64,000 nucleotides of DNA from Tubiluchus corallicola (taxonomy: Eukaryota; Animalia; Priapulida), in assembly GCA_030141605.1 (NCBI GenBank), contig JAQGDQ010000172.1, positions 248,001 to 312,000 of the forward strand, read 5' to 3'. Both the position numbers and the translations under genes were made by a program. Position 1 is the stretch's first letter. Every line of letters begins with the position of its first letter. The notes below the pieces were generated by a model. It ran no database searches, had not been told where the DNA came from, and worked only from the letters and a program-made list of their open reading frames with translations. Below, piece after piece: positions 4,092-51,399 of this stretch.

Positions 4092-4094
4092 GAG

Positions 4095-4102
4095 CTCCCC
4101 CC
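4095..4102 (-). promoter_or_regulatory. Polypurine tract
   Basis: Minus strand GGGGGGAG, 3 nt before the TG of the 3' LTR. Confidence 0.75.
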
Positions 4103-4626
4103 AAAGAATATATCATATATACTTCTTTAACAACAGACATGATTATAACAAAGTCATTTAAATGTGCAAGTAATAACACATAATAACACAAAATCATATT
4201 TATGCCAAACCAATACAAAATTGACTGAGTCAGTAATTAATCATTCAATTAACATTCAGAACAACAAGGATATAAAGGAACATATCAAACTTTAACTTTG
4301 GGTATAACTGAAATTGGGTTGACTTTTCCTTTAAACTAAACACATTACCCAAGTCTACTTCGTATTAAACGGAAATGAAATATGGCTGATGTATGATCAT
4401 TGACGAACTGCATTAATATTAGTAAAAATGCTATTTTCCCATAGATAATAATAGCTTCCCTGCTAACGAATAAGCAGAGTCATTAAATAAACGATAAAAA
4501 TTCTCCTGAAAAAACAAGGGTTTATCCAACCATTGGTGAAAATTAACCCACTGACATGAGATAAATGATTTAAATTCTTTTTTTTAAATCAACAAAGAAA
4601 AGGGTATTCATAACGCAAATGCATGT

Positions 4627-7600
4627 TTATGGACGGCTTAATGCATCTGCCACCAAATTTTGTGAACCTGCCACATGATCAACTGTGAATGCAAATTCAC
4701 TCAAAAGTAGGGCCCAATGACAAAGACGACGGTTATTGCGCCGCATTTTGTCAAGTGCCAAAAGGCTTCTTTGGTCTGTGCGCAGGGTGAAATTCTGCCC
4801 CTCTAAGTAATAACGTAATTTTTGAACGCAGTAAACCACACTCAGCAGTTCAACTTCAACAACAGAATATCTAGTTTCTGTGGTGGTTAACTTTCGGCTA
4901 ACGAAAGTTATCGGCACTTCACCCAAACCATCCTCTCTATCCTGAGACAACACGCCACCTATACCAACAAAGCTGGCATCAGAGGTGAGAATGAAGGGTT
5001 TGAAAAAGTCGGGTGAGTGTAGTACAGACTTAGAGGTCATGGCATTTCGGAGCTGGAAGAAACTTTTCTCACAAGCATCTGACCATTGGACCTGACTAGA
5101 AGCGTGCTTTTCAGTCAAAGCAAACAGGGGAGCAGCAATAGTACTAAACTGTGCGATGAACCGACGGTAGAAACCTACCATTCCAAGGAATCGTCTCACT
5201 TGGGATTTAGTTTGAGGACGAGCACAGTTATGGATCTGTTCTAGCTTTTGGGGCCGTGGCCGTAAACGGTTCTTGCCAATTACGTAGCCTAAAAAGTTGG
5301 CCTCTTGCAGAGCAAAGTGACATTTGCGGGGTTTGGCTGTTAAGCCTGCTTTGCGAATGCATGTCAATGTGTCTTCCACGTGTCTCAGATGGTCTGCCCA
5401 ATTTGATGACTTAATTAGTACATCGTCAATGTATCCACGTGAAGAGTTGGAGACAGTTTCTAAGATGCGATCCATCAATGACTGAGCTGAACTAGCAGCA
5501 TTCATTAGCCCAAATGGCATCACAAGGAACAGCGATGTTACAAATGCTGTCAATGGGATCGACTCTGGCGTAAGTTCTATCTGCCAGTATGCCTTGGCTA
5601 GATCGATAGTCGAGATCCATACTGCATTGTGGAGGTCATCCACTATGTCATCAGGTCTGGGCATGACGTACGGACAAAAGATGGTACGTGCATTCAACTG
5701 TCGATAATCGACGCAAGGTCTCCATTCATCATGAGGCTTTGGCACAAGAAGCATAGGGGATGCATATTCAGATTCTGAGCGTCTTATAACCCCGAGGTTC
5801 AACATTTGTTGCAGCTCCTGTCGTACTACTTCATTGCGTGCCTGGGGAATTCGATATGGATGTTGACGGACTGGTGTTTTGTCAAACAAGTTGATGTGGT
5901 GTCTAACTACCATGGTCCTCCCTGGCAAGTCGGTAAACATTTCGGGAAATTTGTGGAAGACTGTGCGAAGTTGGGTATTAGCTAGACTGGAGAGGTTTGA
6001 AGACAGCTCTAAATCATCTACAGATTGTGTAGCTTTAGCTGTCGGCAGAAAAGCATACTCAGGGAGCCCAGAAGATTGTACAACACCTTGGCCAATCGCT
6101 GGTTCAGACTGCAATTCTTCTACTTCCTCTTCATTTCCAGCCCAGAACACTTCACCCTCAGTAATACTGACATCATCGGTGTAGTCTCTTTCTAGATCAG
6201 GAACTTCACTACTAGTACACATTGCCCACAATACCAAGTTTTCCTGACGGTCAATGTAGTGCTTCAGTTTATTCACATGATAAACTCGGACATCGCGCCG
6301 CTTGCCTTTTGATCCTATGCATACTTTGTAGTTCCAGTCTGACAGTTTATCCACTACTGGAAAGGGACCACGCCAACCTGGGCTCATCTTTTTGCCCTTA
6401 CGCATATTGTGGATCAAAACACGGTCACCAATTTCAAAGCCTCGCTCCTTGGAAATCCTGTCATACCAGCGTTTTTGGGCTAGCTTAGCCTCCCTCAAAG
6501 ACTGGTGGGCATCCTCTGTAGCTGTTTCTATCGTATTGATAACTCGGGCTACATATTCATCGATGTCCTCTAAATTGGGGGGCTTGGAGCATCCCCAGCA
6601 TTCTTTGAGCATAGCCAAAGGACCACGTATAGGATATCCAAAGACAAGTTCATTGGGTGAGTAATTGGTCGATTCCTGGGGCACTTCCCTGTAAGCAAAC
6701 AGGACGAAATCTACAGCTTGGTCCCAGGGTAAAGAAGGATTGTCTTGTTGTAGGCGAAGAATGGAAGCTTTCAAAGTGGCATTATATCTCTCGACAAGAC
6801 CACAAGTGGAATGAGAGTAGGGACTGGCAAAGATACCCTTTACTCCTAATTGGCGCTCTAACTCTTGAGTAAGCTCGGAAGTGAATTGTGTACCACAATC
6901 CGTAATTATCTGTCGAGGGATTCCATACCTGCAACAGAACTTAAGGAGAGCATCCAGTACAGTGATTGTTTCTATGTTAGGAAGTGGATAACAATCAGGG
7001 TAGCGGGTTGAGTGATCAACCAGTACCAATGCATATCGGTTTCCACTAGGAGTACGATCCAGGGGGCCAATGATATCCATTCCAATAGTGCGGAACGCAG
7101 TGTCGGCTATGGTCAGTGGTTTTAGAGGTGCCCCGTCTGCCTGACGTACTCTAGCTGTACGCTGACAGGTATCGCAAGAGCGACAATAGTTACGAACGCT
7201 TCGTTTTAAGTGTGGCCAGATAAATTCTTGGAGTATACGTTGCGTAGTTTTGTTTATGCCAAGGTGCCCAGCAAGTCGACTGCCATGTGCTAAAGCAAGC
7301 ACTGTCTTACGTCTAGGTTTGGGCAGTACGAGAAGTTCACGGGGAGATTGTCCTTTCCTTTCCCGGCATAAATAAAACAAAATGCCATCACGCAAGAAAT
7401 ATCCGCTTCCTTTTTTATAGGCTGCTTCGGGAGTTCCTGCATTATCAATGAGGTTACGAATGGACACATCTTCTTCTTGTTCTTGCCCCAACTCCTTTGC
7501 ACTAGCTTTGAGCAGTTGATCGTGCACTTTTGTGGATTGGTGCAGATCCGTTTGTCCACTCTCCGCCCTATTCAACGCGTATTGATGCTGTTGCGAGTCG

Positions 7601-9537
7601 CGCCTAGCATCAGCCTCTTGCCTTGCAGCTTGTGAGCGGGTTACAACATAAGCTGACTCTGTCATTTGCACTCTTGCTTCGGCGTTGTCCCTGACTTCTG
7701 TAGGATATGTGTTAGTATTACTAGGCACATGTCCTTCAGTATTGGCCCGACGTGGCTTGGGAAAGGGCTTTAAAGCAGAAAGGTAGTTATTACCGAGTAG
7801 AAAATCTGTAGGTAACTTTGAGCTTACACTCACCGTAAGGATGCCGGAAAAACCAGGACCCTCAATTTCAATCTTTGCAGGAAAGCAAGTGCTTTGATCA
7901 CCGCAAATACAAGTGAGTTGCTGAGGTGATTTATCTAAATATTGGTCAGGCCGCACAAACCTCGAATTCACCATAGAAACAGAGGCGCCTGTATCGCGGA
8001 CGCAATCGGCATGCAACCCATTAATGAGAGCCTTGAAGCAAACAGGTTCTGTCTGTCCTCGGATATGCCGCCATTGATTGTTAGCTAAGTCATCACTGTC
8101 AACCTCTCCGAATAATTGTTTTCCAGCCGAAGTAGATCCAGCAGCTTTGAGACTTGCCTCCGTATTAAGGTTGGCACGACATTCATTCCGTTTGTGCCCG
8201 GTCCTGCCACAACGATAACACTGTATCCGTGTGCTCTTCATTGTATTGCCACCTCCACCACTAACTCCACCTTTATTTTCTTTGGAGCGCTGACTGGATT
8301 GGGTAGATCTATTGTAACGACGCGAAACCAGAGTACTCCTTTCATGTGGTGTTACTAAATTTGCAGCCACGTATCGATCTGCGCGTTCCGTAAGTTCTTC
8401 TAATTTCAGAAGAGTTTTCCTCCTGAGCCATGCCGCCAAGTCATTTGGCATCAAGGAAAGTACCTGTTCAATTGCGTCAATTTGACACACTCCCTCATAG
8501 GTAGAAACACCGAGAGCTTTGTGATAATCTCGCAGGCTACTATCCAGCCTGCGACCGAGTTGAGTGTAGCTTTCATTTTTCAGTTTGCTAATACTTCGGA
8601 ATCTTTCCAAGTACATATCAGGACTGAGAATGTAAGCACCAAGCAATGCCTTACGTAATGCATCATAATTTCGCAAACTGTCTGCTGGCAATTGCTGAAA
8701 CGCATCAGCAGCCCTGCCAGTCAATGCTGGCCCCAGGCAGGCTGCCCAAAATGTCTTAGGAATATCATTGGCAACCGCACAAAACTCGAACCAATCCAAG
8801 TACTTCTGAATATCATCCTTAGATTCTTCATATGTCCGGACTTTAAAATGCCTGATTTTGTCAGCAGCAGAATCTAAAGTTGAAGTATTGGGGTTAGAGA
8901 AGGAGATATTTTGTGCGGGGGATGACCTAAGTTCTTGACGTCTCAATTCAACTTGAGCCATCTGTTGTTCATGTTCCATTTTCTTTATGGACACTTCAGC
9001 TTCAAGTTCCAATCGCCTAATTTCAAGTAAGGCTTGGGTTGTCTTCTCAACAGTAGTAGAAAGCGTTTCTAAATTAATTGACGCAGTTTTACGACGCCTA
9101 GGAGTAGGCAAAGGTACCCTATTTACATGCGTTGGCATCGAGACCGGATCTAGCAGGGGCTTTTCGGCAGCAATGGTTCGCACCCCTGTTGTAGCGAAGT
9201 GAAGCGGCTTGCGCTTGACACTAGTATCCTCTCGTTCACTTAAAGCGGCTGTAGCCGGTAGGGGCAGCTCCATGTCATTATCCGAGAGAGAACCCTCCTC
9301 TGACATGCGATCCAGTTGATCCAGTGGATCTTTCATCTCACCGCCTTCTGGATTTTCCAAGTCCGCCCTAGTTTCCGCTCCCTCTTCGGGAAGCCCTGCT
9401 GCTTTAAAAATTGTAGTAATCAACTTCGCTCTCGTAGTTCGTGGGTCAACCAGGAACAAATGCTCTGCAACGATATATTGCAACTGTTTTTTGCTAAGGG
9501 AAACTAATTGTGACAGTTTATATCGTTTCTCAGACAT
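4627..9537 (-). CDS. Gag-Pol polyprotein (SCAN-like capsid, CCHC knuckle, protease, integrase, RT, RNase H)
   Basis: First ATG at 9537 (MSEKR). Capsid YLDWFE...LTGRA...Y..L..ALL; knuckle CYRCGRTGHKRNEC; protease RDTGA; integrase HGSRLAGH..CDTC, MDIIGP, TDCGTQF, GLVERYN and GPF; RT WRPCVDYR, IDLAKAYWQI, YIDD; RNase H SDAS..ADALSR. Confidence 0.95.
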   Translation of the reverse strand: MSEKRYKLSQLVSLSKKQLQYIVAEHLFLVDPRTTRAKLITTIFKAAGLPEEGAETRADLENPEGGEMKDPLDQLDRMSEEGSLSDNDMELPLPATAALSEREDTSVKRKPLHFATTGVRTIAAEKPLLDPVSMPTHVNRVPLPTPRRRKTASINLETLSTTVEKTTQALLEIRRLELEAEVSIKKMEHEQQMAQVELRRQELRSSPAQNISFSNPNTSTLDSAADKIRHFKVRTYEESKDDIQKYLDWFEFCAVANDIPKTFWAACLGPALTGRAADAFQQLPADSLRNYDALRKALLGAYILSPDMYLERFRSISKLKNESYTQLGRRLDSSLRDYHKALGVSTYEGVCQIDAIEQVLSLMPNDLAAWLRRKTLLKLEELTERADRYVAANLVTPHERSTLVSRRYNRSTQSSQRSKENKGGVSGGGGNTMKSTRIQCYRCGRTGHKRNECRANLNTEASLKAAGSTSAGKQLFGEVDSDDLANNQWRHIRGQTEPVCFKALINGLHADCVRDTGASVSMVNSRFVRPDQYLDKSPQQLTCICGDQSTCFPAKIEIEGPGFSGILTVSVSSKLPTDFLLGNNYLSALKPFPKPRRANTEGHVPSNTNTYPTEVRDNAEARVQMTESAYVVTRSQAARQEADARRDSQQHQYALNRAESGQTDLHQSTKVHDQLLKASAKELGQEQEEDVSIRNLIDNAGTPEAAYKKGSGYFLRDGILFYLCRERKGQSPRELLVLPKPRRKTVLALAHGSRLAGHLGINKTTQRILQEFIWPHLKRSVRNYCRSCDTCQRTARVRQADGAPLKPLTIADTAFRTIGMDIIGPLDRTPSGNRYALVLVDHSTRYPDCYPLPNIETITVLDALLKFCCRYGIPRQIITDCGTQFTSELTQELERQLGVKGIFASPYSHSTCGLVERYNATLKASILRLQQDNPSLPWDQAVDFVLFAYREVPQESTNYSPNELVFGYPIRGPLAMLKECWGCSKPPNLEDIDEYVARVINTIETATEDAHQSLREAKLAQKRWYDRISKERGFEIGDRVLIHNMRKGKKMSPGWRGPFPVVDKLSDWNYKVCIGSKGKRRDVRVYHVNKLKHYIDRQENLVLWAMCTSSEVPDLERDYTDDVSITEGEVFWAGNEEEVEELQSEPAIGQGVVQSSGLPEYAFLPTAKATQSVDDLELSSNLSSLANTQLRTVFHKFPEMFTDLPGRTMVVRHHINLFDKTPVRQHPYRIPQARNEVVRQELQQMLNLGVIRRSESEYASPMLLVPKPHDEWRPCVDYRQLNARTIFCPYVMPRPDDIVDDLHNAVWISTIDLAKAYWQIELTPESIPLTAFVTSLFLVMPFGLMNAASSAQSLMDRILETVSNSSRGYIDDVLIKSSNWADHLRHVEDTLTCIRKAGLTAKPRKCHFALQEANFLGYVIGKNRLRPRPQKLEQIHNCARPQTKSQVRRFLGMVGFYRRFIAQFSTIAAPLFALTEKHASSQVQWSDACEKSFFQLRNAMTSKSVLHSPDFFKPFILTSDASFVGIGGVLSQDREDGLGEVPITFVSRKLTTTETRYSVVEVELLSVVYCVQKLRYYLEGQNFTLRTDQRSLLALDKMRRNNRRLCHWALLLSEFAFTVDHVAGSQNLVADALSRP

Positions 9538-10242
9538 TATTGAAACAATTATTAAATTCAAGCCTGAAAGCGAAAATGTAATTAGCTACGGATTATAGTT
9601 TGATAGTTTGATATAATTTTCCACTTCTCACGCCTCCACACACTCTTGCACTCAAACACAAAGAGAAACGTTTTTTAATTCTATTTCTTGTTAACGAGCT
9701 TCAACCCGTACAATTAAACTGGAGTTTTTGAGCGTAGGCCTTTAGTATCAAATGTATTGGCCAGAATTTTGTATGCGCAAAGTATATTTAAAAAGCTATA
9801 AACGCTTAGAACAAGCAACAGAGAAGCCAGGTAAACATGCAGCATGTATACTTCCTGCCAACGAAGCTTTTTCCATATTTAGTTTGCGAATAAACTGGAC
9901 TTATGCCAAACTTTCAATAACGTCCTATGTAAACCTGACTAGACACCAGAATACAGTTAGGAAACAATATTTAGGTTAAACTGCAAAATATTGAATAAAT
10001 TGGTGTACCTACAAAGTTTAAATAGAGAAACTGTTGTAACTACTATTTTCTGCCCGGTTTTTCACTTTTCGTTTAAGTAAAGCTGAATCGTTTATCACAC
10101 GGACAAAAATATTTCCTACTAGTAGTTAATGAAAGAAATTAACATTTCCGTGGCATTTGTTTAGCTCACACTGTATAACCAAGACTTGTACAAAACGGAT
10201 GAAGATATCAACTCAAGTTGATATTAGACACGACAAAAAACG

Positions 10243-10252
10243 TCTGACACCA
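10243..10252 (-). promoter_or_regulatory. Primer-binding site (probably tRNA-Leu)
   Basis: Minus strand reads TGGTGTCAGA 1 nt after the 5' LTR; complementary to the ...UCUGACACCA 3' end of tRNA-Leu(CAA/CAG). Confidence 0.85.
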
Positions 10253-10253
10253 G

Positions 10254-11420
10254 TGTAACATTCGGGTCACGAAATTCCTTGCTAGCCCAACTGAGGCTCG
10301 AACTTGGGTCGGGCAACTTAAGTCAAGATAGATTGCTGAACGGGTTGGTGACTCCAAATGTTAAAGAGCAGCAATATTTGTTTAAATTCTAAGGCAGTTA
10401 CAAGCGCAGGAGGGGTCGGTCCGTCCTAAAGTACAGAGAATGGGCCAATGGTGATACAGTGTGAACGGGAACAGTGAACACAACAAAGTATAAATAAACA
10501 AACTGTTTGTCTTAGGTTTAACATTTTAATTGGCATAATTAATTAATTAATTCAAAACAATAAACAAAAAGAACTCACAACTTGCACAAGAGCAGCGGGG
10601 TACCCCTCATTTAGTAACAGTCTTCTAGCGTTTCGCGTAACGGGACGTCTCCCGTAAAGTTCCGGGTTTCACACACTTAGGTGGCTGGAATCACTTTGCT
10701 AACAGTCTTGTCGACAACGGCGACCGCTTCAATGTCCCACACGCTTGACTGGCTTAATGAGATTAGCGGACGATGACAGACTACCAGGATTTTTCTGACG
10801 ACGTCTCCTCCTAATGAGTCAGGTACCAGGCTTTCAGAATATATTAGAAGTCTACTTTTTGTGTCGTCTTGGTTGGAAACTCCACCATCATGGAAGCATA
10901 CCCATCACAGGAAAATGTCATTTGCCAAATACTAGACGTATGGCTCACGTTCTGTCTACTCAAGATAAATGAATGGTAGTGTGAACAATTCAATCCACGT
11001 AGCTATTGCGAGTCACGAAGTTGATTATAAAAGTATCAGAAGCGATGTCTTGTCGGCCAACGCCCCGACAAAGACAAAATCAATTGGCCTTTTAGCTGAG
11101 TCGGCCATTAAAAAACTATCCGTAACCTCGTGGAATAATCTGCACCTCTCAAGTCATACCTGTCGTGACCCAGTTAATCATCCAATCACAGCGGTACTAT
11201 AGGTATGAGATCACGAAGCCAGAATTTAGTCCAAAAAGTTGAACCGTAACATTTCTTTGTTGAACTCCCAATAGGTGGAGCCACCAGTTTATAACGTTTA
11301 CCAAATTCGGTTAATTAGTTATTAATGACAGGTTCAATACAATACATTTCAAATGCCACGTAAACGTGTTATTACAGTTAAATGGCTATTCGTTTTAATC
11401 TGCTAAACACGACCGTGACA
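10254..11420 (-). repeat. 5' LTR (1167 bp)
   Basis: Near-identical to 2933-4091, with an extra AATTAATT near 10541-10550; followed on the minus strand by the PBS. Confidence 0.97.
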
Positions 11421-12689
11421 GTGCTTTATATTCTGTAATGAAGATCATGAACTGGTTGACTTCTTTATCGGTTCGCTGCAATAACTTAGAAACTACTAAA
11501 GCTGTAAACTCATTATTAACATCATTTATTTTCGAACACATATGTACAGTTAAGTTACATAAGTGCTTCAATTAAAAGAAATTAGTAGGCTAATAGTAAA
11601 GTAAAAATAAATATTAAACACTGACAACAACAACAAAAAAACAAGCACGGATATTATTTACATACAAGAAGACAAAGCAATTAATTTAAAAAGATGCTAC
11701 ATATTCTAAAATCTCTCTCAATTGATACTTTGATAAAAAATTAATATTCCTGTTTTCAATACAATTTATACAATCTTTTGCTAAGTTTATTGTCGCTAGC
11801 TGCCTGGAACTTAACTCGCAACTTTTTACAGTTTTACGAGATAATACATGAAATATCTAAATGCATCTTCTAGGGTAACATAATTTTCTATAACAATTTT
11901 ATACAAGTTGAAACCCATTATTAAGTTTACGTTATATAATGTATGTTTGGCTATAAAGTTAATTATCGAGTTACTACTATTTATACATAGCTGAAAGAAT
12001 TTAAAAGTGCTTACGTGACTGAACGGTAGCAACAACATGGGACAAAATGATGGTTTTGCCCCCTCTAAGCGGCAGTTCCCATAATTTACGGATAGCTATA
12101 TTCCAAGCGATATCAATAAAATGTATTTTCGAATTATTTAACCTCCAACTCTGGCAATCGTATTAACTTTCACAGCCGAAAGCTAATGTGTCGTAATACC
12201 TAAAGTGCAATTTCAGCTCGGTGGTTACTGGTTTTTAATAATTTGTTATTATAGTCTAAACTTCTTTCAACGCACTTTTTTCCGCTATCCGATATAATTT
12301 GAAAGTCCATTAGGTTCTTAAAATACGTTTTGCTTCAAACTTTGTTTAAATCTTGAAATTCTATAACTGAAATCAACATCCATAACTTACTATAAGAAAA
12401 CAAAATTGTGATTTTTTAACAACTAGACGATTGTGTTCGTAAAATTATGTGGCTAACATCAATAGCTTTTTGCATTCGTGAGGTCAAAACAACAGATGGT
12501 CAAATCTAGTAACTAATGGCGCAGTTTAAACAGCAAACGAATGTTGTATTTTTGTTTTTGTGGAATCGGTGTCTTTTTGTTTGGTAACAAATAAATGCTT
12601 TCATTTATGTTATTTTCATAGATTTCTGTAACGAATTTGTGATTTACGAGCAGTTGCAATGTAAATAGCGTGTTGCAACATTTTGAGAC

Positions 12690-14236: not shown

Positions 14237-14602
14237 TTGAACCATTCACATTCTTTTGTTGAACCGCTCACATTCACTTGTTGCACCATTCACATTCATT
14301 TGCTGAGCCATTCACATTCACTTATTGAACCATTCACATTCACTTGTTGAACCATTCACATTCACTTGTTGATCCGTTCAAATTCACTTGTTGATCTGTT
14401 CACATTTATTTGCTGAACTGTTCACATTCATTTGTTGAGCCATTCACATTCACTTGTTGAGCCGCTCACATTCACTTGTTGAACCATTCACATTTGTTTG
14501 TTGAACCATTCACATTCACTTGTTAGACAATTCACATTCACTTGTTTAGCCATTCACATTTGCTTGTTGAACCGTTCACACGTTCACATTAATTTGTTGA
14601 GA
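14237..14602. repeat. Minisatellite, ~22-bp unit ACCATTCACATTCACTTGTTGA
   Basis: About 16 degenerate head-to-tail copies without unique spacers. Confidence 0.9.
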
Positions 14603-16851: not shown

Positions 16852-18218
16852 GTAATCTTTTTTTACTTCGACTTGCTTAGATTGTGCGAGATTGAACAAG
16901 CTGCTTTAGAATTTCTTTTTACATTTAATAAGCATAGATTGAGTGTCTATGTAAAAATCATACAAATATAATACAGTGCGTGTTTTCAGTGTTCTCACAC
17001 AAATTAAAATTTAATAAGCTACTGTATTTCTAAATCCGTTTTAAGAATACTAGTTATAGGAGGGAATGACTGCACGATTTATAAATTTTTGAAACCACAC
17101 CTTACCAAAAATTAATACTTGTTTGTGTTTTTCATCACTTCCAAGTAACCTTGAAATTCATATTATTAACAATTAATTAGTTACCCGCGGATCATTCAAA
17201 GATAAAAATTAATTAAAAAAATATTTTATTAGTTAGTACCAGCTTCCGCGTAAGTAACTAACACTTTTTGATTTATTAGTCTGGTGAATAAACTAATAGG
17301 ATATAATGAAGACCTGTCAATATATCAAGCGGCTGTGCTTGCAAGTGAGAGCAGTAGAAGTCATTGTGGCGACGTAAAATTAAGAAGCAACAAAGTAGGG
17401 TGTGCGGTGTTCCACATAAATATTTTCATGCAGTATATTTAATGGTAGACGCCTTCAAGAATGACAGACGTTGTCCAGGTCTGTAAAATAATTAAGTAAT
17501 CTAGAAAATGTATATATGTAGTGACATCATTATAATTTTCCAGTTTATATGTTTTACCAAATACATCGTGTATGTAAAATTAGGTTACATGTTTAGATAT
17601 TTAGATACTTGTTGATTTATTCAGCATAACAATGTAATTGCAACATATGTTCACAAGAGACCAACAATAGATAAAAATAGACATTGTAGTTGCTGCATAG
17701 CACCCAAGTACTATCATTCAAAACAGTAAAATAGTTGAATGTGAGCGAAAAACATCCGTAATAAAACCGGATCAACCTGTAATATGATCCTCACTCATAC
17801 AGATTTACAATTGGAATGTATTAAAGCCCTACTATCGCAACAAACAAACAAATAATCATTTGTGGACTAAAAATGTCAAACCTGCCACCAACATTTGATA
17901 TTTGAAATGTAAATAACCAATATCAAAAATTAGGTTTCTAATAGAGTAATTATTGGTCTTTTTTGTTACTTTAGTTGAGGACACCCCCTTAAGGTCTGCC
18001 AGCTGATGCTGCCATTATATAAAAGACTACTCATCCGTCACATGCTTATAGCTACATTGTACAATGTTTAGTGGTCAAACAGCATGTTCTTGATAAAGTG
18101 GTTATTTTGCCACAAGCTGTCTGACTGTTATTGTTTTCATCTGTTTACACGGTTGTCACCGCCATCGTAATTAACAATTAAACGGATTTTATTTTCATTT
18201 TTCAGTGCTCCGTTAATC

Positions 18219-19355
18219 ATGGTGGTAAATTTGCTAGTCGTAGCTGTGGCTGCACTACTAACAATGGTTGCAGGATACACCAATGACGAGAGTGATCCGA
18301 CACGTCATTTGATTGTTTTGTCTCCTCCAAAACATAAAGATCCATACTATGACATACAACATAATGTTGCTGCAGACATCGTCAATTTCCAGATTTCTTA
18401 TGCTAAACAGATTATGGGCAGAGATAACGTGGTCATCGTCGGAGACAATGATGGCCTTCAGCCTTTCCGAAATGCAGGCATTCCCGAAGATATCCTTCTG
18501 GTGGTGAAGAATCCGATGGAAGATATTTGGATGAGAGATTTTACAACCATTAATCCATACAGTCCATTTCAGCTGCGGTACACAGCAGATGCACAAGCTA
18601 GTTCTGACAACACTGAGGCAGAAGCTCAGCAAATTGCTGATTACGTTCAAAGTCATTTCATAAATACGTTTTGGTTAATGGGTCTCACATTTCCTTACAA
18701 TGGCAATTTGGTAATTGATGGTGGGAACGTAGTGGATAATTACATAGACAAGATCATAGTAACGTCTAAATTCTCAACAGATAATAGGATTGACAATAAT
18801 GAAGCAGTTGAAAAAATGCAAGGCTTTTACGTAGGCGAAGAAGGTAGCATTGTCAATGTTGCAGTTATTCCACGTGATCCAAATGACCCTTTAGGCCATG
18901 CTGACGGTATGGTGTCATTTATAGATGACGACGTCATTGCTATAGCCGATTTGAACTATGGTGGTCAAAATTTAGTCCAAGGAACTAGACAAGCATTACT
19001 CAATGCATTTGATGGTATCACACTCGTTAATATGAAAGATCTTGGCTATGAAGAAGGACCAGATCCAAACTTCTCTTCTGCTTGTGGTATAAGCGTGAAT
19101 GCTGTACTTACGGAAAATTACCTGTATCTTCCTGTTTTTGGAGAAGAAGGTAACCCAGAGGTGGTGAAGTTAGTCAAAGATAATACTAACAAAATAGTTG
19201 TACCAGTTAATGCTGATGGCGTATGCACTATGGGTGGAAGTGTTCGATGCCTCTCTTGGCAGCAAACTGGCAAGAATGCTAAAATAATCATACAAAAAGC
19301 ACGTCAAACCAATGCCAACAATGTTTTTGACAACCCTCTTCCTGGCGTCTATTAG
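18219..19355 (+). CDS. Secreted agmatine deiminase / PPAD-like (pentein, PAD_porph) enzyme, paralog 1
   Basis: 378-aa single-exon ORF; hydrophobic signal peptide ending VAG|YTNDE; motifs DIWMRD, IDGGN, GHADG, SVN and GGSVRC (catalytic Asp/His/Asp/Cys); splice acceptor 13 nt upstream of the ATG; AATAAA near 19627. Confidence 0.9.
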   Translation: MVVNLLVVAVAALLTMVAGYTNDESDPTRHLIVLSPPKHKDPYYDIQHNVAADIVNFQISYAKQIMGRDNVVIVGDNDGLQPFRNAGIPEDILLVVKNPMEDIWMRDFTTINPYSPFQLRYTADAQASSDNTEAEAQQIADYVQSHFINTFWLMGLTFPYNGNLVIDGGNVVDNYIDKIIVTSKFSTDNRIDNNEAVEKMQGFYVGEEGSIVNVAVIPRDPNDPLGHADGMVSFIDDDVIAIADLNYGGQNLVQGTRQALLNAFDGITLVNMKDLGYEEGPDPNFSSACGISVNAVLTENYLYLPVFGEEGNPEVVKLVKDNTNKIVVPVNADGVCTMGGSVRCLSWQQTGKNAKIIIQKARQTNANNVFDNPLPGVY

Positions 19356-21099
19356 AAAGAATTGATAACATGTAATGATCCGTGGTTTTTATTTTTTTAA
19401 TTATTAGCTTTCTATCATCTTAGCCTGTCGCCAGAATTCAGGGCCTTTTTGGTTTATTATTCCTTTTCCTGTTACGTCCTCAACCCCAGGAACGCATTGA
19501 TTTATCGATGAAATTGTTAAGCATTTTGACCTACAACGTAGTTTGGCCAGCTCTTTATTACAGTTCTTTAATTCTTCTGCCCGTCGACTCCTTCCCCTAT
19601 TAGCCTACCAAGCTCGTAAATGAAATAATAAATAATACAATAGTGTAGCGTGGTAGTTTATTGGTATATTACCGAGAGGAGTAACAACTATAATTTATAG
19701 TTTCTACCACTAACGTAAAGCCAGGTCTCAATCGCAGGTATCGGACAAATAAACAACTCGCAATTGTGTTAGAATGCTTCAGAAAACGGATTTTGAAAAA
19801 TGATATCTGTCAAATCAGTTGAACGAAACAACTTTGTGATGTTGAATATAAACTCAGGCCGCTTTTACATAGATTAAAGGTGTTACACATATTAAAAATC
19901 CAATCTGAATAAAGGGAAAACTCAAATAAGTTTTGAGAATTTGCTAGTCGGGGTGCTATAGTTTTATTTTTTCATAAGTTAGCTTTTCAATTTAGATTTG
20001 CCTCATTAGGGATAAGGGAGTGGATGGTACTACAGAGACTGCCATGCCAGTGCACTGTATTTTAAAACTACATCTAACTATTTTGAGAATACTCCGAAAA
20101 AACACGTAGTGAGAAGAGAGTGTAACAGGATTTCTGCATCTTTGCATCTTTTCTGTGTTATAATCAGCAACTTATTTGAGATGTCAGCCCGTTGTAAGCC
20201 TTGATAATTTCATATCACAGGATGAAAGCAACTCTTTCAGTTCTTGAAAGAATTTAGACAAACATCCAATTTCAGTCTTTTTGTATGTTTACTGATTGTA
20301 GTTTGTAGGTAGTGACGCGAACGATACGCTTTTAAGACTTAGCTGGAATTTATTTGCTCAATAATAGTTCATTGTGAAGTTTTATTGGTATTTTCATTTA
20401 AACAAAGCTTATTGCAATATGCTATCTTTAAAATTGTCATTGGCAGAATTTTAGAATTTGTCCTTATTAAAAAGTTCAGATAACTCAGTAACTATTCATT
20501 TGCACGTGTATTTTTGCAATGCAAGCGAAACCTTCAAAAGTACACCTGAAAAACATTGTGCAGCCTATTTAAACTGCAATGTACAGCTTGTAACCCAAGA
20601 CTCTATGTCATTTGTGTATTCATTTTATCAAATAACATTTTATTTCAATTCATGCGCCAGAAATTTTAAAAACACATTACAGTTTTCTTAAAAACAAAGT
20701 ACACCGTGTACACCGTACATTACAAGACTGAGGCTTGCGTAATTTTATAATACCTACATAATCACACAACTTGCCAAATGTAGAACTACAAAATATAACT
20801 AGTTAAAATATGGAAAAAACAAAACTACTTAACCTTTTGATAAGTTTGTTTACATCTTTTACTTATTACAATTACCTGCAATTGCGTAATGGGTGAATTA
20901 ATTACTACAAGAGAAAAGAATGCAGATGTATATCACAGTCGCCTCAGAAAATAACCTTAAGAAAAAGTAGCTATGCGCAATCACAAATATGCTGAGAAAA
21001 TTGTAATTTTTTATGCGGTTCGGCACTCTGCAAGGCGAAATCTGCCCTACTTAACGAGGATGAGTATGGCGGGATTGGAACTTTGCTAATTATAAAGGA

Positions 21100-22300
21100 T
21101 AATACTCTAACGCGTAACATTCGATCGGCAGGAGGATGTACACACGTTCTTCTTCAAGAAAAAAGAGTCTGTCAGTATGATAGGTGAAAGTGCCAAAAAG
21201 AATTTTCGTGGCAGTCACCAATCCATTCACTGACCAGATTCAGTACTGCCCAAGTTTGGTCATTAAGCATGTGCAGCGAACACTAAGGCATTTTGGTGTT
21301 CTCTTTTACACTGCAATTAAAACTGAAACATACTGAGAGTACGAATTTGATCAGGCATTTATGAAAAACACATTCAGAAAAATTTAACTACAGAGTTTTT
21401 TCTGATATTTCCACACTTTTTGGGAACTAAATCTTAAAAGTCACTACTGCAGGAAGAACCAATATTTTAACGCGAAATGATATCGCATGAAAATACTGCG
21501 AATGCGGCGCCAATTAAAATAGTATTAAATAAAGTGCTAGAACACGTCACAGCAAAGTGGACGCCAAACAAATTAATGGCCACGGGTGTCAAGAAAATGT
21601 GAACCGTCCACCACAGTTAAAACCAACTCTAAAACATGGAAACGTTAAATCAATAAAGAGCTCTTGTGAACAATAAATACTTGGATTACAAGTGTAGAAC
21701 CGACAAAACAGCAGACGATATTGATGATGAGGAAGAGTTTACTTATTAAAGCTCAGTCGATTATCCAACTGGCATTAGAATATGGAATTAGGCATTGCCA
21801 AAACTGTCAACTAGCAAATTCAAATGCTAAAGAAATTTTTACGTAGATTAATTCACTCGTTTCCAAATATGAACATTTCCCAACGAAATAACATTTCTCA
21901 CTAGATTCCGGTGATGACTGAGAAGATTTATTTGTCACCAAAGCTATAACAAGTACCAGAAAAACAATAATTAGAGCTTATGCTGTAATTACGATGCACT
22001 CTACTTTCTCATTGCTGTTTCATAGTTTTGTTTCAAAGGTTAAGCCTCTTAATAGATTTTTACCTGCATACATTGAAAAAGCATTTATTGTACAAAAACT
22101 CTTTAGTAACTTTTGCTCGCAGAAACTTATATGGAGATCTCTCAACAGCAAGAACCGTGTCGTGTAAAGCATACGCTGCCATATTACAATATCTACATCA
22201 AATGCTAAATGAATGTCGTGAAGTTTGGGCTTCACGATTCGCCCGCCATAAAGAAGCCATTGAATTGAATTGACGTGTAACTGTAGGAACTGTTTGGAGG
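21100..22300 (+). mobile_element. Possible degraded piggyBac-like remnant
   Basis: QY..PKFG-like fragment near 21241-21265 and a Cys/His tail (ECREVWASRFARHK); very decayed, boundaries approximate. Confidence 0.3.
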
Positions 22301-22500
22301 AGTTGTTGAGGGGATAGGAAGGAAAAAAACTGAGGTAATGCGCTCTGGTAAAAAGAATAAATTTAGCATTACGGCGGAAGTAAAAATTCTCGTTTTTTTC
22401 GTTTTACTGTTGTCACAAAAGTCACCACGACAATGAAAAACTAATAAAAATAATTTTGTGCAACTTGTATTTTCAACAGTGCATTTAGTACAACAACCGT

Positions 22501-22617
22501 ACACTCGATTTGTTTTGTGCTGTTGCTGACAAGTGCAATCTAGTTTGCTTCAGAGCTACACTCGATGTGTTTTGTGCTGTTGTTGACAAGTGCAATCTAG
22601 TTTGCTTCAGAGCTACA
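22501..22617. repeat. Tandem duplication of a ~57-bp unit
   Basis: ACACTCGAT.TGTTTTGTGCTGTTG.TGACAAGTGCAATCTAGTTTGCTTCAGAGCT occurs twice. Confidence 0.9.
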
Positions 22618-23005
22618 TATTTGGTAGCATGTTCCTATTTGTTACAGCAGGTATTTTGCTTAACCTTACTTTTACACTTACGTAGGTTGTCCGCTGCTTG
22701 ATGTTCATTTTGTTAATGTTAACAAATGGACTTTTTCGCAATTAGTTTCTTCAATATCTGGCAAATTATTAATAATGCACAGATTATATGGTGCGACATT
22801 ACTTCATAGCATGAGCTATACCGCTGCCACGATGCAGAAATAATCGTAAACTGAAAAATTCGTTCGATGTTTGTATTGTGCAACTATGCACTTTACTGCG
22901 CTCCTTTTCTAAAATAATTTCACAAGGAGCATTTTTTAATATGCCCAAAAAGATATTCCCGAAATTTCTCAAGTACACAATTATGTTCGTTTTTTATTTT
23001 ATTAT

Positions 23006-23169
<164 letters not shown>

Positions 23170-24142
23170 GCCTATTATCTATTAAAATTATTATTTTGAT
23201 AGATATTGCCAAAGCAATGTGTAGGAAAATCATTGCTCATGTAAGTCGGTTATTGCCTGCTTATTACCTTGCTTAAAGTTGGCTTACCATAGCGTATGTT
23301 AATTACTTGCGTCTGTTCAATTATATAGCCCTCTCATTCATTAGCATTCATTCCGCTGAGACCTTTCTAGGCTTAATCTCAAAGTGCACAGTAGACTGCA
23401 TTTTTAGTAAAGCTCCTGTCACATAATTATGGTGCTTTGGTCGAGAGATTTTTGTTACTAATGTTTGAAAGTCTTTGGGTTTGCGAGTAGCGTCACCGTT
23501 ACTTTCTTAAAAATTTCTTATCGCGTTTTTATATAAAAACTAAACAGCCACAAAAACAAGGACTTTAACAAATAGGACAGTGCACAAGAGAGCTTTCCTG
23601 AGATTTATCATCATTAACAGAGAAAAACGTAATTTATAATCTCAAAAATTAACTATAAAGGGCATTATGTTTTTCTCTGTTTAGGACTGTGTACACTTCA
23701 TACATGATAATCAGCACTTCATGACTGGAATGCACTTCGACGGGGCGAAACTTCATACCACTATCCTACTCACCTTTAAAGATCATTAACGGCTGCTATT
23801 CGATTCTTGATTAAATATGGGCTAGTTTTATTGTTTGTGAAAGACACCTGAGCAGAGCTAGGTACTTCGGTGTACGTTTGACTTTCCAGATCTATTGCAA
23901 TCACGCGTCTCTTAGCGTGAGAAATGCAAATGCTTGCAAAAGCTTTGGTATACGAAATAATCAACTTTGCGTATTAATGTAATCAGTAATAAACTGTAAA
24001 AGAATTTATTATATTTTAAAACAATTTTGAGCAGAAGAATTAAATAGCCAAGGAAATTAATCAAAATGGTCCATTAATGAAACCTAATAGGAAAGAAATG
24101 CAGATAGACGTTTGACAGACAATAGAGAGACATATAGACAAG

Positions 24143-24152
24143 TTGACAGACT

Positions 24153-24184
<32 letters not shown>

Positions 24185-24550
24185 GACTGACTGACTGGCT
24201 GACTGACTGACTGACTGACTGACTGACTGACTGACTGACTGACTGACTGACTGACTGACTGACTGACTGACTGACTGACCGACCGACCGACCGACTGACA
24301 GTCAACCGACTGATAAACTGATCGACTAACTGACTGTCTGATTAATTGATTGGTTAGATGACAGATTTGCTCATTCACTGCAGTCTGCCAATGCGTTGAC
24401 AACAACAACAACAGCAGCAGCAGCAGCAACAACAACAACAACAACAACAACAGCAACAGCAACACCAACAGCAACAGGAACAAAAAGAGGAACAACTGCA
24501 CAGCAGCGGCAGCACCAGCAATAGCAACACCATCAACAGCAACAATAATG
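24143..24550. repeat. (GACT)n/(GACC)n followed by (CAA/CAG)n microsatellites
   Basis: Direct reading. Confidence 0.95.
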
Positions 24551-24823
24551 ACAACCATAGGAGCTCCTTAAAGATAGCTGCTCTTGTAATTATAAAAAAG
24601 CGTATTATTCCGCAAACGATTTTAATGTTGTAAAAGTTTCTAGACCAGAATTGTGTTAAACCTGTGTAAATATTAACATTAGAAAAAATGAGATTTGTTT
24701 GGTTCTCTAATGACGGCTAAATCCTGTTCTAGTTATTTACATATAAGGGTGTTTTCAAAATTTCTCAAATCTTCGTGATATTTAGAATGTTATCAAGTAG
24801 TTTGCCGAACATTTGGCATTTAG

Positions 24824-24938
24824 ATTCATTACATTAAGGCGTCAAGCTGTCGCCACGTATGTGGGTGTTGTAATGCGGACTATATAATAAGAAAATCCGA
24901 AATAGACAAACAGAGAAAACGTTGAACAACACATAAAG
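24824..24938 (+). promoter_or_regulatory. Candidate promoter and non-coding exon 1 of deiminase gene 2
   Basis: Same ATTCATTACATTAAG motif (24824-24838), TATATAA at 24881, donor AAG|GTATAT at 24938/24939; acceptor CTTTCTTTATAG ends at 25487. Confidence 0.45.
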
Positions 24939-25514
24939 GTATATATTTTATCGTATTAATGACAGAAAACAACGACCAATGAGACGTCACTTCCAAATAT
25001 CTTTACAATTTTACTTCACCTTCGAAGTTTCAGAAATTAAAACGTTGCGAAATTTGGAAGATTTTGACTGCATTTTTTACATTCGTTGAGTGTTGAGCAT
25101 TTGTGAAATTTCTGGGTCAAACATGAATATTACATTTCACTATGGTGCCTGGTGAATGCCTGGTGCCTGAACGCATTTTTGTGTATGCTTTGAATTCAAC
25201 GCATTGGCAAGAATAGAGGATTTCTTTGGCTTAAGAAAAATATAATGACTTGGATTTTTTGTCCAGGATGAAGCTCAGCTTACCTCAAACTATGAAAAAA
25301 GGTCAAAAACTAAATGTTTAACTCGTTTTAATACAAGTGTTGCTTACTTGAACTCTTTTTGCACAACTATTTGTATAAATGAGCAACTTAGAAATTAACT
25401 ATAGCAGGTATGGTACAACTGTTGTAATATGCAGACATGTAAAAAGACATTCTGTTTAAGATATCAAATAATTGACTTTCTTTATAGGTTTTTGAAGAGC
25501 GCTCACTTGTAAAT

Positions 25515-26636
25515 ATGCTGGAACGTATGCTTGTCCTCATTTTTGCAGCATTAATTTGCAGTACAGCTACGGCGTACACCAACGATGAAAACGATCTGAA
25601 TCGTCATCTGATTGTTTTGTCTCCACCAAAATATAATGATTGGTACTACGAGCAGCAATACCAGGTCTCGGACAAAATCAACGATTTTTTAATTCGATAT
25701 GCTAAAGCCATTATAGGGAAAGACAATGTTGTCATTGTTGGCAATAATTTGAGTCTTAAACCCTTCCGAGAAGCTGATATTCCCGATGACGTCCTTCTGT
25801 ATGTGAAAAATCCAATGGAAGACATTTGGATGAGGGACTTTACAACCATTAACCCGTACGATCCATTCCAGCTGCGTTATTCTCTAGATGCACAGTTTAT
25901 TTACAGTGCATCGCAGGCCCGCAGAGATGCAGATTATGTTCAGCGACATTTTAGAAACACATTTAGATCATTGGGTGCTGACATTCCTTACATTGGTGAT
26001 AGAAAAGCATGGATACTCGATGGTGGCAATATGGTGGACAATTATAAGGACAAAATTATAGTGACACATAAATTCACGTGGGAAAATTATCTCTCTGATA
26101 GTAGAGCTATTCAGGAGTTACAGTACTTTTACCATGGAACCGAAACCAATAGTGTCGATGTCGCAATTATTCCATGGCTGGCAGGTGATTCTTTGGGTCA
26201 TGCTGATGGTATGGTGTCATTTATAGACGACAACGTCATTGCAGTAAGTCATGTGGGTCAGCAACAAACCATACAAGCATTAAATGCTGCATTTGATGAA
26301 GTGGAATTTGTTGAAATGCCCAATTTAGGATATACACCGCCACTCGACACGAACTTCGATTCTGCTTGTGGTCTAAGCGTTAATGCCGTACTTACAGAAA
26401 ATTACCTGTATCTTCCTGTTTTTGGAGAAGAAGGTAACCAAGAGGTGGTCAAGTTAGTCGAAGATAATACTAACAAAATAGTTGTACCAGTTAATGCTGA
26501 TGGCGTATGCGGTATGGGTGGAAGTGTTCGATGCCTCTCTTGGCAGCAAACTGGCGAGAATGCTAAAATAATCATACAAAAAGCACGTGAAACCAGTCCC
26601 AATAATATTTTCAACAACCCTCTTCCGAGGTACTGA
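25515..26636 (+). CDS. Secreted agmatine deiminase / PPAD-like enzyme, paralog 2
   Basis: 373-aa single-exon ORF; signal peptide ending ATA|YTNDE; the same WMRD, DGGN, GHADG and GGSVRC motifs; clear paralog of 18219-19355; AATAAA near 26752. Confidence 0.9.
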   Translation: MLERMLVLIFAALICSTATAYTNDENDLNRHLIVLSPPKYNDWYYEQQYQVSDKINDFLIRYAKAIIGKDNVVIVGNNLSLKPFREADIPDDVLLYVKNPMEDIWMRDFTTINPYDPFQLRYSLDAQFIYSASQARRDADYVQRHFRNTFRSLGADIPYIGDRKAWILDGGNMVDNYKDKIIVTHKFTWENYLSDSRAIQELQYFYHGTETNSVDVAIIPWLAGDSLGHADGMVSFIDDNVIAVSHVGQQQTIQALNAAFDEVEFVEMPNLGYTPPLDTNFDSACGLSVNAVLTENYLYLPVFGEEGNQEVVKLVEDNTNKIVVPVNADGVCGMGGSVRCLSWQQTGENAKIIIQKARETSPNNIFNNPLPRY

Positions 26637-35107: not shown

Positions 35108-35322
35108 ACCTAGAACAAGTTGCAATAGAATTTTTCTATTCAGATTCTGTTAGAATGTAGTCTCAAGTGCCCTCAACAAAAAATCGGCCAAAATCTGCTT
35201 CAGTGCTTTTGAGATATACGAAAAGGCCACTAAAAGTACCAAAGCCGAATTTTGTTGAGGGCACTCGAGACCACATTCTAACAGATTCTGAAGGGAAAAA
35301 TTCTATCGAATTTGTTCTAGGT
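35108..35322. mobile_element. Hairpin MITE-like element, ~80-bp inverted arms
   Basis: ACCTAGAACAA...GTGCCCTCAACAAAA..TCGGC (35108-35188) pairs with GCCGAATTTTGTTGAGGGCAC...TTGTTCTAGGT (35244-35322). Confidence 0.8.
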
Positions 35323-38815: not shown

Positions 38816-40306
38816 CTAAAAGCTGTGACCATAGACGGTCTATTACTGAACCACTAGTTTTTTTCCTCTTCAGCAATCAGTCACTTATGTTTCATACCTG
38901 TCATGACACAATTTGTTTTTTGCTTCTGAAACTTTGCAAAAACAACAGAAGTTTACTGGTATTACTTATCTACAGCTAAGAATACTTTTGTGAAACAACG
39001 TTATTCACTTTTTACCGAAATGCCCGGTGGTTGCTTGTTTACTAATCAAATACAAAAAATAATGATGCATTATAAGAAATATTATAATTAGAAAAAAATA
39101 TTCACCAGATGAAAGCAAATGTAGATGTGGAAGGGTCCTTTTCTGGAAATCTAAATTACTAAATACAAAACTAATTAAAAATGCCCTAGGCGACACAGGG
39201 GCTCGCTGTTTGTCAAATGGGAAGCTTCGACTGAAGCTCTTTCTTGTTTTGCGTTAACATTTTTATGTTAACTGAAATCTTATTATATGAAATTCCGTAA
39301 GCTCTGCCTCACTTTCGTGGACTTTGCACGAAATTTACCTGCTGCATAAACAGGTTTCGGTTTGTATGAAAAGGAAAAGAATACTGATGAACGCGATAAG
39401 AACATACTACCTGCTTATCGATGTTGTATCGAAACATAATTCCCAGCATGCTAAACAAAGCCAATTATAAAACTATTTGCCCGTTACAAATTCTATTTTA
39501 TTTTTATTTTTGTCGATAATGTACTGTGATATAACGTGACATGACTATAATAAAAGGCTTATTTTAGCCATTATTATATTATACCGTTTAGTTATTATTA
39601 GTATAATAATTTATCTAAAAAGCGAAATCTGCACACTGTATAATTGTATACATGGTGCGTTTATTTATGTAGTAAAAGATAATGGGTACCTATAAATGCA
39701 GTAAATATTATTATACTGCTGTGCGACAGCAACATAGCCTTGAGCAATATTTCTTTCAAATAAACCGGTTAAAGATTTTTACTAACATAAGCGGCAAATT
39801 GCGAAATACGCGATCTATAATTACTGTAACCCAAGAAACGTTCTCATGTCATTTTATAAATAGAGGCCAATTTATTGAGATTTATTTCCTAAACAGAATG
39901 TAATGTGTTTGCTACGACATAATGTATTACAAGGAGAAATTTTGAGAATTAGTAGAAGTTACTTCAATTTCTGCTATCTTCGATTATGAGGTTACACCAA
40001 GCGCAACAAAAGTCTTAGAGTTTCATTAAATGTCTGTATTTTTCTTTCAGGAGCCACCTTAGCAAAAAACTGGTACTGCGTCGAAGTATCCCACTAAACG
40101 AAGCATCGTCAACTTTTTGATGATACACGGTGAACGAAAATAAAATCGGATTTGCAAAAATAAAAAGACGTAAAACTGAGGCAACAAACTTGGAAAACAG
40201 AGCATCCTCACATTTAATAGAACATCTCGTTCAAGCTTGATTAACGAATTATACACCGCGCAGTTTGTGAAGTGGCTTTTATTTAGCTTATCTATACACC
40301 GACACA

Positions 40307-50778
<10,472 letters not shown>

Positions 50779-51399
50779 TATCAGAACATCAGTAACAAAT
50801 TTAAATAAGCTGCTCAAAAATTACGATAATTATGTAGCTTTCTCCATTTAGATTTGGTATTGGCCTGAGACGTTGTAAATGCACCGCTGTGCGGTAATTA
50901 AGATTATTGATATTCTATAATCTCTAGTTGTAAAATCTCAATTACAATCAGTATTGTTTTTATTAGCGACTTTAGCTTTTAAATGCAGTTTATAAATGAT
51001 TTTTTATTCATGCCGTTTTGTTGATACTAATAGTTTATTAGATATATTCATTTGTGCGACAATTTTGTAAATAGTTTTTAAAATTATGCATAACTGAGTT
51101 GGCAATTTAAGGCAAACTGTTGTATGCGTTGGGGAATTTTAATTGCAGGCGCGTTCTTTCATCATTAATTCTCTTAAATTTGTTGCAATAATGCAATCGA
51201 GACAATAAGCGTCTGTTAACAAAAAAGCAACTCTGTTATCTAATTTTTTTTCATTTTGACAGCTTTGACATAAACTAACTGAGTTCACTCAGCTACAAGC
51301 TGAGCTACTACCCTTTAAAATGTTTAGCAAAATCCAGCGAACTTTGATCGCCTTAACATCGCTGAAAATTTGCAGGCTCATTTCAGCCAAGATGCAGAC

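Follow-up and report, generated by a model that had tools for sequence, protein, structure and literature searches.

Two tandem genes from a predicted exported agmatine-deiminase-like subfamily belong to a small, old animal clade of likely bacterial origin

Main finding

We analysed a 64,000-nucleotide stretch of contig JAQGDQ010000172.1 from Tubiluchus corallicola (assembly GCA_030141605.1, positions 248,001 to 312,000 of the forward strand; hereafter the window), which contains two tandem genes of the agmatine-deiminase/PPAD superfamily (gene 1 and gene 2; Table 1). Judged by their sequences, both genes belong to a distinct, uncharacterised and mostly bacterial exported subfamily, within which they form a small, old animal clade together with proteins from horseshoe crabs. 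A bacterial origin of this clade is likely, but it falls short of statistical proof because approximately unbiased (AU) tests leave basal and all-eukaryote placements unrejected. The overall reading that we favour, to which we give roughly even weight for and against, is that an early protostome acquired a bacterial gene once, that the gene was widely lost, and that the surviving copies were duplicated in tandem and would remove ammonia from an agmatine-like guanidine outside the cell. If true, this would be a separate, old animal acquisition of extracellular guanidine-modifying chemistry, found in horseshoe crabs and in a distant invertebrate.

Two intact genes outside the characterised families

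Both reading frames are uninterrupted, intronless and on the plus strand, at the positions reported in an initial annotation of the window, and the encoded proteins are 63% identical over 379 columns. The YTNDE, DIWMRD, GHADG and GGSVRC motifs occur in both, and the claim of a full pentein catalytic set was confirmed, with all five catalytic residues present in each protein. The same annotation had proposed a PF04371 profile check, which both genes passed (48 bits for gene 1 and 53.5 bits for gene 2, against a gathering threshold of 25). No third copy or remnant was detected within the window by a six-frame profile search.

Three better-known identities were ruled out. Against the model for canonical AguA (TIGR03380), the proteins scored 12.9 and 13.1 bits compared to an equivalog cutoff of 381.8. 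Animal PADI (PF03068) was excluded as PF04371 was the sole domain at E-values up to 1, with no PAD_N, PAD_M or PAD_C. PPAD was excluded by the lack of Tyr233 (P224 and S226 are found instead) and of an immunoglobulin (Ig)-like or sorting domain at the C terminus, with both proteins ending ~30 residues past the catalytic cysteine.

A search with gene 1 identified 301 proteins among 5078 candidates, of which the best 120 were listed. The best match was P0001 (366 amino acids (aa), 51% identity), followed by Tachypleus and Limulus proteins at 44-45% and then by matches at 34-44%, the named ones all bacterial among those listed. A profile of five animal-side rows, again with the best 120 matches listed, added a second Tachypleus paralogue, with a Limulus orthologue in the same cluster. 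Apart from P0001 (51%) and the horseshoe crabs (41-46%), the named matches listed in both searches were bacterial, and no protein named Priapulus was among the 120 best matches of either. Searched without filters, the 50% representatives gave 801 proteins (best 150 listed), and two of the ten matches that were identified are diplonemid proteins.

In GTDB, 140 loci encode relatives, 80 of which were kept and span 13 phyla; bacterial subfamily members are 32-45% identical to the window proteins. Relatives were also present in 24 of 174 metagenomic stretches, with best identities of 28-40% and none near the animal clade, and these were left out of the trees. None of 44 pattern matches in viral contigs proved to be a relative. 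Members are frequent in Acinetobacter (locus L009 and 12 others), where they have a lipoprotein-like leader and are uncharacterised. No publication on the subfamily or on its Limulus and Tachypleus members was found in a search that lay outside subscription papers and bioRxiv supplements, and a term search of an amphioxus horizontal-transfer paper (PMC13350694) gave no mention of a deiminase. A characterised window protein would be the first member with a known function in a large exported bacterial subfamily of several hundred proteins.

Phylogeny and origin

The window pair, P0001 and four horseshoe-crab proteins formed one clade in every tree, with support of 99 (348 rows), 99 (mixture model, 78 rows) and 100/99 (38 rows). 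This clade was nested in all best trees, and inside several bacterial branches in the tree rooted on two canonical AguA sequences. AU tests, run under LG+G4, rejected a tree in which the window trio (the pair with P0001) joined the nearest bacterial clade without the horseshoe crabs (p 0.014). The animal rows also have four rare residues in common, compared to a mean of 0.19 and a maximum of 3 across 300 controls. With the four horseshoe-crab proteins grouping with the pair at 100/99, the acquisition is therefore probably old, and the suggestion in the initial annotation of a capture private to this lineage was not borne out. In both trees, built from a set with no priapulid reference, the LRP5/6 gene of the window (334 residues) was placed within neither the arthropods nor the deuterostomes. 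Because horseshoe-crab members share the clade while the host LRP5/6 lies outside arthropods, the family is common to both sides of a deep protostome split.

Several results weigh against a single bacterial acquisition. Four other arrangements were not rejected by AU tests: a single clade of animals and protists (p 0.28), a basal position for the animals (p 0.20) or for the eukaryotes (p 0.13) in the subfamily, and a grouping of the horseshoe crabs, but not the window trio, with the nearest bacterial clade (p 0.10). The bacterial sister of the animal clade was resolved in no tree, and the horseshoe-crab proteins are 51-52% identical to the bacterial protein P0005 but only 41-45% identical to the window genes. 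The position of LRP5/6 also varies, from between arthropods and the rest (LG+G4) to a grouping with spiralians at 94 (mixture model). Taking these together, we consider a bacterial origin of the animal genes to be probable, and we lean towards one event shared with horseshoe crabs.

The window lineage and the horseshoe crabs might instead have received their genes separately, each from one unsampled bacterial clade, or by passage from animal to animal. Such transfers would fit the patchy occurrence in animals (two window proteins, P0001 and four horseshoe-crab proteins among the matches listed), the lack of an animal best hit for any of 75 fragments or any remaining full-length row, the position of the host LRP5/6 outside arthropods, and the AU result for horseshoe crabs joining bacteria alone. 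The stems of both animal groups are also long (0.34-0.35), but the path between the groups (1.55) is ~15 times the distance between Limulus and Tachypleus orthologues (0.1), which speaks against a recent animal-to-animal jump and fits an old split. Together with the clade support, which holds under the mixture model, and the four shared rare residues, this makes separate transfers unlikely, although they are the most serious rival to a shared event.

A protist-side clade of the subfamily comprises P0188, P0189, P0193, P0195 and P0226, with P0193 and P0195 from the diplonemid Flectonema neradi. All five proteins lack the cysteine pair described below, P0226 has also lost the catalytic histidine, and P0189 and P0193 are extended by a Ser/Thr-rich linker and by what is likely a membrane anchor. 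This clade is possibly a second eukaryotic acquisition. It could also point to old eukaryotic inheritance, in which an ancestral gene was kept by animals and diplonemid-like protists and lost in nearly all other eukaryotes; the two F. neradi homologues, the three proteins grouping with them, and the unrejected joint monophyly and basal position of eukaryotes are consistent with this. Nonetheless, animals and protists were joined in no best tree, the window trio had no rare residues in common with two protist rows, the coding sequences are free of introns, and loss would be required in almost every sampled eukaryote, all of which make inheritance from an early eukaryote improbable. The initial annotation had named broad vertical distribution across Metazoa as the pattern that would contradict a capture. 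No such spread was found, although homologues in protists do exist and a single eukaryotic origin was not rejected.

Leader and cysteine pair

In agreement with the signal peptides claimed initially, both proteins start with a hydrophobic leader (best 10-residue Kyte-Doolittle means of 3.3 and 3.35), whereas two canonical AguA controls gave -0.67 and -0.21. Using the same measure, a hydrophobic N terminus was found in 200 of 257 rows outside animals and protists, including 171 of 196 with long leaders; this is a crude rule, since it also admits 15 of 35 rows with short leaders, and not a dedicated signal-peptide predictor. The window proteins and their bacterial relatives likewise have the mature-start motif and two additional cysteines in common. 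The proposal that the host had added the secretion signal was thus not supported: because bacterial relatives already carry a leader, secretion was probably inherited with the bacterial gene rather than gained in the host. The window proteins themselves are predicted with good confidence to be secreted.

Across 346 rows, both extra cysteines were present in 258, neither in 82, the second alone in 6 and the first alone in none. Their covariation (6.4 versus 0.0 of 10 independent pairs, median p 0.03) suggests a disulfide adjoining the active site.

Fold, catalysis and substrate

We modelled gene 1 from a 16-row alignment (predicted local distance difference test score of 83) and assessed gene 2 by sequence. 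The model has the five-fold alpha/beta propeller (pentein) fold, and its best structural matches were agmatine deiminases (Z 25.4-26.9, root-mean-square deviation 3.0-3.4 over 296-307 residues), compared to Z-scores of 21.4-21.9 for PPAD, 20.0-21.1 for human and mammalian DDAH and 17.7 for PAD4. A single-sequence search of the PDB reached only E 0.98, and profiles were required.

The catalytic positions are 98-99% conserved over 348 family rows, and W104, D107, H227, D229, N294 and C344 map onto W127, D130, H236, D238, N297 and C351 of PPAD and the equivalents in E. faecalis AgDI (PMC4487231). Because the catalytic residues match the PPAD/AgDI set and are so strongly conserved in the family, we infer with high confidence that the chemistry proceeds through a covalent thiouronium intermediate with release of ammonia. 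By this analysis, the proteins are very probably active hydrolases.

The position four residues before the catalytic histidine (His-4) is Asp or Glu in 77% of the 348 rows and Asp in both genes (D223 and D225). It matches Asp220 of Medicago AIH, which together with His224 binds the amine of agmatine (PMC6447857). A small guanidine with an amine tail is favoured because of the ranking of folds, the acid at His-4, the lack of Tyr233 and the apparent absence of the Arg pair of PPAD. We rate an agmatine-like small substrate as nearly an even prospect and peptidyl-arginine as doubtful, with other guanidines taking up the remaining probability.

The agmatine-like assignment also has evidence against it. 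The animal rows offer no clear equivalent of a second tunnel Trp (Medicago Trp125), by a sequence alignment that is unreliable in this loop; PPAD also appears, from its numbering, to have an acid at His-4 (E232), so this residue is no proof of agmatine; and the solved AgDIs are no more than 13-17% identical. Among 118 bacterial neighbour genes there were 2 canonical AguA and no N-carbamoylputrescine amidase or polyamine antiporter. These neighbours were taken from 64 of the 80 loci (12 Acinetobacter loci were dropped as redundant, 4 were not parsed and neighbours of more than 900 aa were left out), and they revealed no conserved operon around the bacterial genes. Three were flavin amine oxidases, in related Anaerolineae. 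At two loci (L060:2409-3506 and L070:4999-6030), the exported enzyme adjoins a canonical AguA, which is the sole hint toward agmatine from gene context.

Peptide citrullination, which the initial annotation had raised, would share the same origin but target the Arg residues of secreted peptides or proteins; it might disarm cationic peptides or modify body-fluid proteins, for example, and would amount to a second citrullinating system independent of PADI. The window proteins resemble PPAD in their predicted secretion, full catalytic set and strong acidity (net charges of -23 and -19 for genes 1 and 2), but the model is nearer to AgDI than to PPAD or PAD4 (Z 26 versus 22 versus 17.7). A small residue (Pro, Ser or Gly) stands where PPAD has Tyr233, and in PAD4 the exchange of this Tyr for Ser468 provides space for extended substrates (PMC4487231); AgDIs, however, are likewise small at this position. 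The lid Trp of AgDI is apparently missing from the aligned animal rows, whereas the loop after D107 lacks the R-x-R pair that PPAD needs for carboxylate binding (PMC4487231, PMC4893104). One Arg in this region, R120, is kept in all six animal rows and could be a counterpart of the Arg152/Arg154 clamp of PPAD.

Citrullinated proteins have been reported from Limulus haemolymph (as cited in PMC8464700 and PMC9988307), for which a citrullinating member would be a host-encoded candidate. Similar reports exist for sea urchin, lobster, shore crab and bivalves, but members of the clade were not found in these groups among the matches listed. Citrullination is thus the less favoured substrate class, with a model closer to AgDI and no counterpart of Tyr233, and we regard it as unlikely. 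More improbable still is the fuller scenario of an independent, second deiminase capture from bacteria by early animals: a secreted single-domain enzyme acquired before the split between the non-arthropod host lineage and horseshoe crabs, which a few bottom-living marine animals would have retained for over 500 million years and which would citrullinate extracellular peptides.

Duplication, selection and gene conversion

The two copies are under purifying selection in the host. The ratio of nonsynonymous to synonymous substitution rates between them was 0.21 (257 codons, within codons 20-284), with a bootstrap upper bound of 0.33 and synonymous sites near saturation. Nucleotide identity between the copies reaches 94.8% over codons 285-361, compared to 66.7% elsewhere, and synonymous differences fall to 0.076 from 0.64 (p 1e-13, with the boundary picked after viewing the alignment). 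This near-identical tract over the catalytic end is likely the result of gene conversion, while homogenisation during assembly may be an alternative source. In the 38-row tree, the horseshoe-crab paralogues and the window pair arose from separate duplications.

Host residence and expression

In this assembly, both genes are linked to animal genes and transposons. The setting described in the initial annotation, among animal transposons, an SLC13 gene and LRP5/6, was confirmed by domain, long terminal repeat (LTR) and splice-joint evidence, and the trees, homologue lists and substitution rates supported its view of real host genes with bacterial-family kinship, tandem duplication and purifying selection. 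We regard the two genes as almost certainly real host genes.

The alternative is that bacterial contaminant or symbiont DNA was misjoined into an animal scaffold. Neither coding sequence has introns, and no long read or contig joining a coding sequence to its flank was seen among the pieces listed, those of run X1 over gene 1 included. Yet the two copies lie 6 kb apart in DNA that is rich in microsatellites, poor in open reading frames and devoid of bacterial neighbours, both between and around the genes. Their closest relatives include horseshoe-crab genes placed on chromosomes (contigs of 169 and 59 Mb), and the near-saturated synonymous sites also argue against an artefact. GC content at third codon positions (0.34-0.36) is similar to that of the host LRP5/6 (0.37), though it does not separate host from donor, as bacterial relatives span 0.27-0.52. 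Overall, a misjoin is extremely improbable.

Contigs of run X1, which may come from the assembled sample itself, differed from the window at 0-3 positions over 200-690 nucleotides (nt). Gene 1 bins had a depth of 3-13, as in other non-repeat bins, where depth is not equal to copy number. Repeats stood out in the same run, with depths of ~9500 at 56488-57025 and ~2700 at 14237-14580, a 22-bp tandem array, compared to ~3-14 in unique bins.

A spliceosomal acceptor had been claimed initially upstream of each gene. Acceptor-like YAG sites do occur 13 and 27 nt before the start codons, but equally good sites lie upstream of 60 (gene 1) and 155 (gene 2) of the 2365 ATGs in the window, and no upstream exon in the 5' untranslated region (UTR) was found for the site of gene 1. 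These sites lend real but modest support to 5' UTR introns, short of proof.

Because its spliced LRP5/6 contigs are 91-97% identical to the window, with three introns skipped, run X2 is taken as the transcript set of a close relative. One 180-nt contig from this run covers the DIWMRD motif, where 42 of 49 bases agree with gene 1. Inspected by eye, its ends keep the reading frame, are distinct from P0001 and from either gene, and include the two-residue insertion seen in the window subclade, which gives a weak hint that a third family member is expressed in the relative. A search for RNA data covering window positions 17500-20000 gave no listed match, which speaks neither for nor against transcription. 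No contig for either window gene was present among those listed from X2, leaving transcription of the pair unsupported.

Other features of the window are given in Table 1. In the Gypsy element, the integrase precedes the reverse transcriptase and gag weakly matches a SCAN domain. The coiled-coil-like exons had no clear match to a Pfam or Atlas family. An imperfect inverted repeat at 35108-35322 (215 bp, 78% self-complementary) is possibly a small non-autonomous transposon.

Table 1. Features of the window. Positions are counted from the first nucleotide of the window.
Feature	Position	Strand	Details
Gene 1 coding sequence	18219..19355	+	378 aa; free of introns and internal stops; PF04371 pentein fold; key residues W104, D107, D223, H227, D229, N294, C344; cysteine pair C289/C336
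Gene 1 predicted signal peptide	18219..18275	+	19 aa; hydrophobicity 3.32; single helix 2-15 in model; putative cleavage before YTNDE
Gene 1 acceptor-like pyrimidine tract and CAG	18191..18205	+	13 nt 5' of ATG; candidate end of 5' UTR intron
Gene 1 near-identical tract	19071..19301	+	Codons 285-361; spans N294, both paired cysteines and C344
Gene 1 candidate polyadenylation signal AATAAA	19627..19632	+	Chance occurrence common in AT-rich DNA
Gene 2 coding sequence	25515..26636	+	373 aa; free of introns and internal stops; key residues W105, D108, D225, H229, D231, N290, C340; cysteine pair C285/C332
Gene 2 predicted signal peptide	25515..25574	+	20 aa; from sequence; hydrophobicity 3.35
Gene 2 acceptor-like pyrimidine tract and TAG	25473..25487	+	27 nt 5' of ATG; weaker than gene 1 site
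Gene 2 near-identical tract	26355..26585	+	Codons 281-357; counterpart of gene 1 tract
Gene 2 candidate polyadenylation signal AATAAA	26752..26757	+	Chance occurrence common in AT-rich DNA
Young Gypsy LTR retrotransposon	2933-11425	-	Single open frame of 1652 aa (minus strand); 1.17-kb LTRs 98.5% identical
SLC13-type sodium/sulfate or carboxylate transporter gene	40271-50780	+	Multi-exon
Long interspersed nuclear element, endonuclease-reverse transcriptase	52667-55900	+	1077 aa; almost intact; few N bases near start
Coiled-coil-like exons	57260-58858	+	Open frames of 57 and 196 aa; convergent with LRP5/6 3' end
LRP5/6, last four exons	60608-63789	-	X2 contig joints confirm three introns

Proposed history and mechanism

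Under the reading that we favour, an early protostome would have acquired the gene once from a bacterium, with subsequent loss in most animals. A bacterial leader readable by the animal secretory pathway may have eased domestication. After the tandem duplication, the substrate-entry half would have diverged while conversion kept the catalytic end alike. If the enzymes work as their solved relatives do, the guanidinium would be held by D107 and D229 and attacked at its carbon by C344, with H227 acting as acid/base and releasing ammonia; water would then free the ureido product, which would be N-carbamoylputrescine if the substrate is agmatine. D223 is proposed to bind the terminal amine of the substrate, and, in an oxidising compartment, a C289-C336 disulfide could stabilise the loops next to N294 and C344. 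The likely use would be to clear or salvage guanidines from food, sediment or microbes, in the gut or body fluid.

Comparison with known systems

AguA/AIH enzymes (PDB 6NIB, 6B10, 2JER, 3HVM) are the nearest solved systems and, like the window proteins, consist of a single pentein domain with the Trp-Asp/His-Asp/Asn/Cys set and the acid at His-4. The window proteins differ in their hydrophobic leader and cysteine pair, in having DGG for EGG and RC for HC, and in apparently lacking the NAWG motif, and the bacterial members of the subfamily lie outside agu operons. Agmatine deiminases have been described as missing in higher eukaryotes (PMC4487231). With Porphyromonas gingivalis PPAD (PDB 4YTG, 5AK7), the window proteins share the Pfam family, export (predicted in their case) and catalytic residues, but they match its structure less well and lack its Ig-like domain, a Tyr233 equivalent and the R-x-R pair for the C-terminal carboxylate. 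PPAD has been named as the only other characterised bacterial PAD (bioRxiv 2020.07.16.207027).

Within the subfamily, the diplonemid proteins P0193, which has a hydrophobic leader, and P0195 form a separate clade from the window pair in all best trees and lack both paired cysteines. The horseshoe-crab proteins (Limulus polyphemus XP_013790147.1 and XP_013787712.2; Tachypleus tridentatus XP_076314901.1 and XP_076356884.1), each an 'uncharacterized protein' in RefSeq, are like the pair in identity (41-46%), length, catalytic set, cysteine pair and clade, and differ in lacking the two-residue insertion before MEDIW.

Known animal citrullinating enzymes trace to one cyanobacterial transfer, which gave rise to PADI, and the invertebrate holders listed for it are Priapulus, Saccoglossus and Branchiostoma (PMC8826395). 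The same paper treats pPAD/AgD-type proteins as phyletically distinct from PADI, and its supplement, where figure labels may be unsearchable, gave no text match to Limulus or Tachypleus. PADI belongs to a different family from the window proteins, has three domains and depends on calcium, and PAD4 reaches only Z 17.7 against the model. What the two systems would have in common is a bacterial guanidino-modifying enzyme, early uptake by animals and patchy retention.

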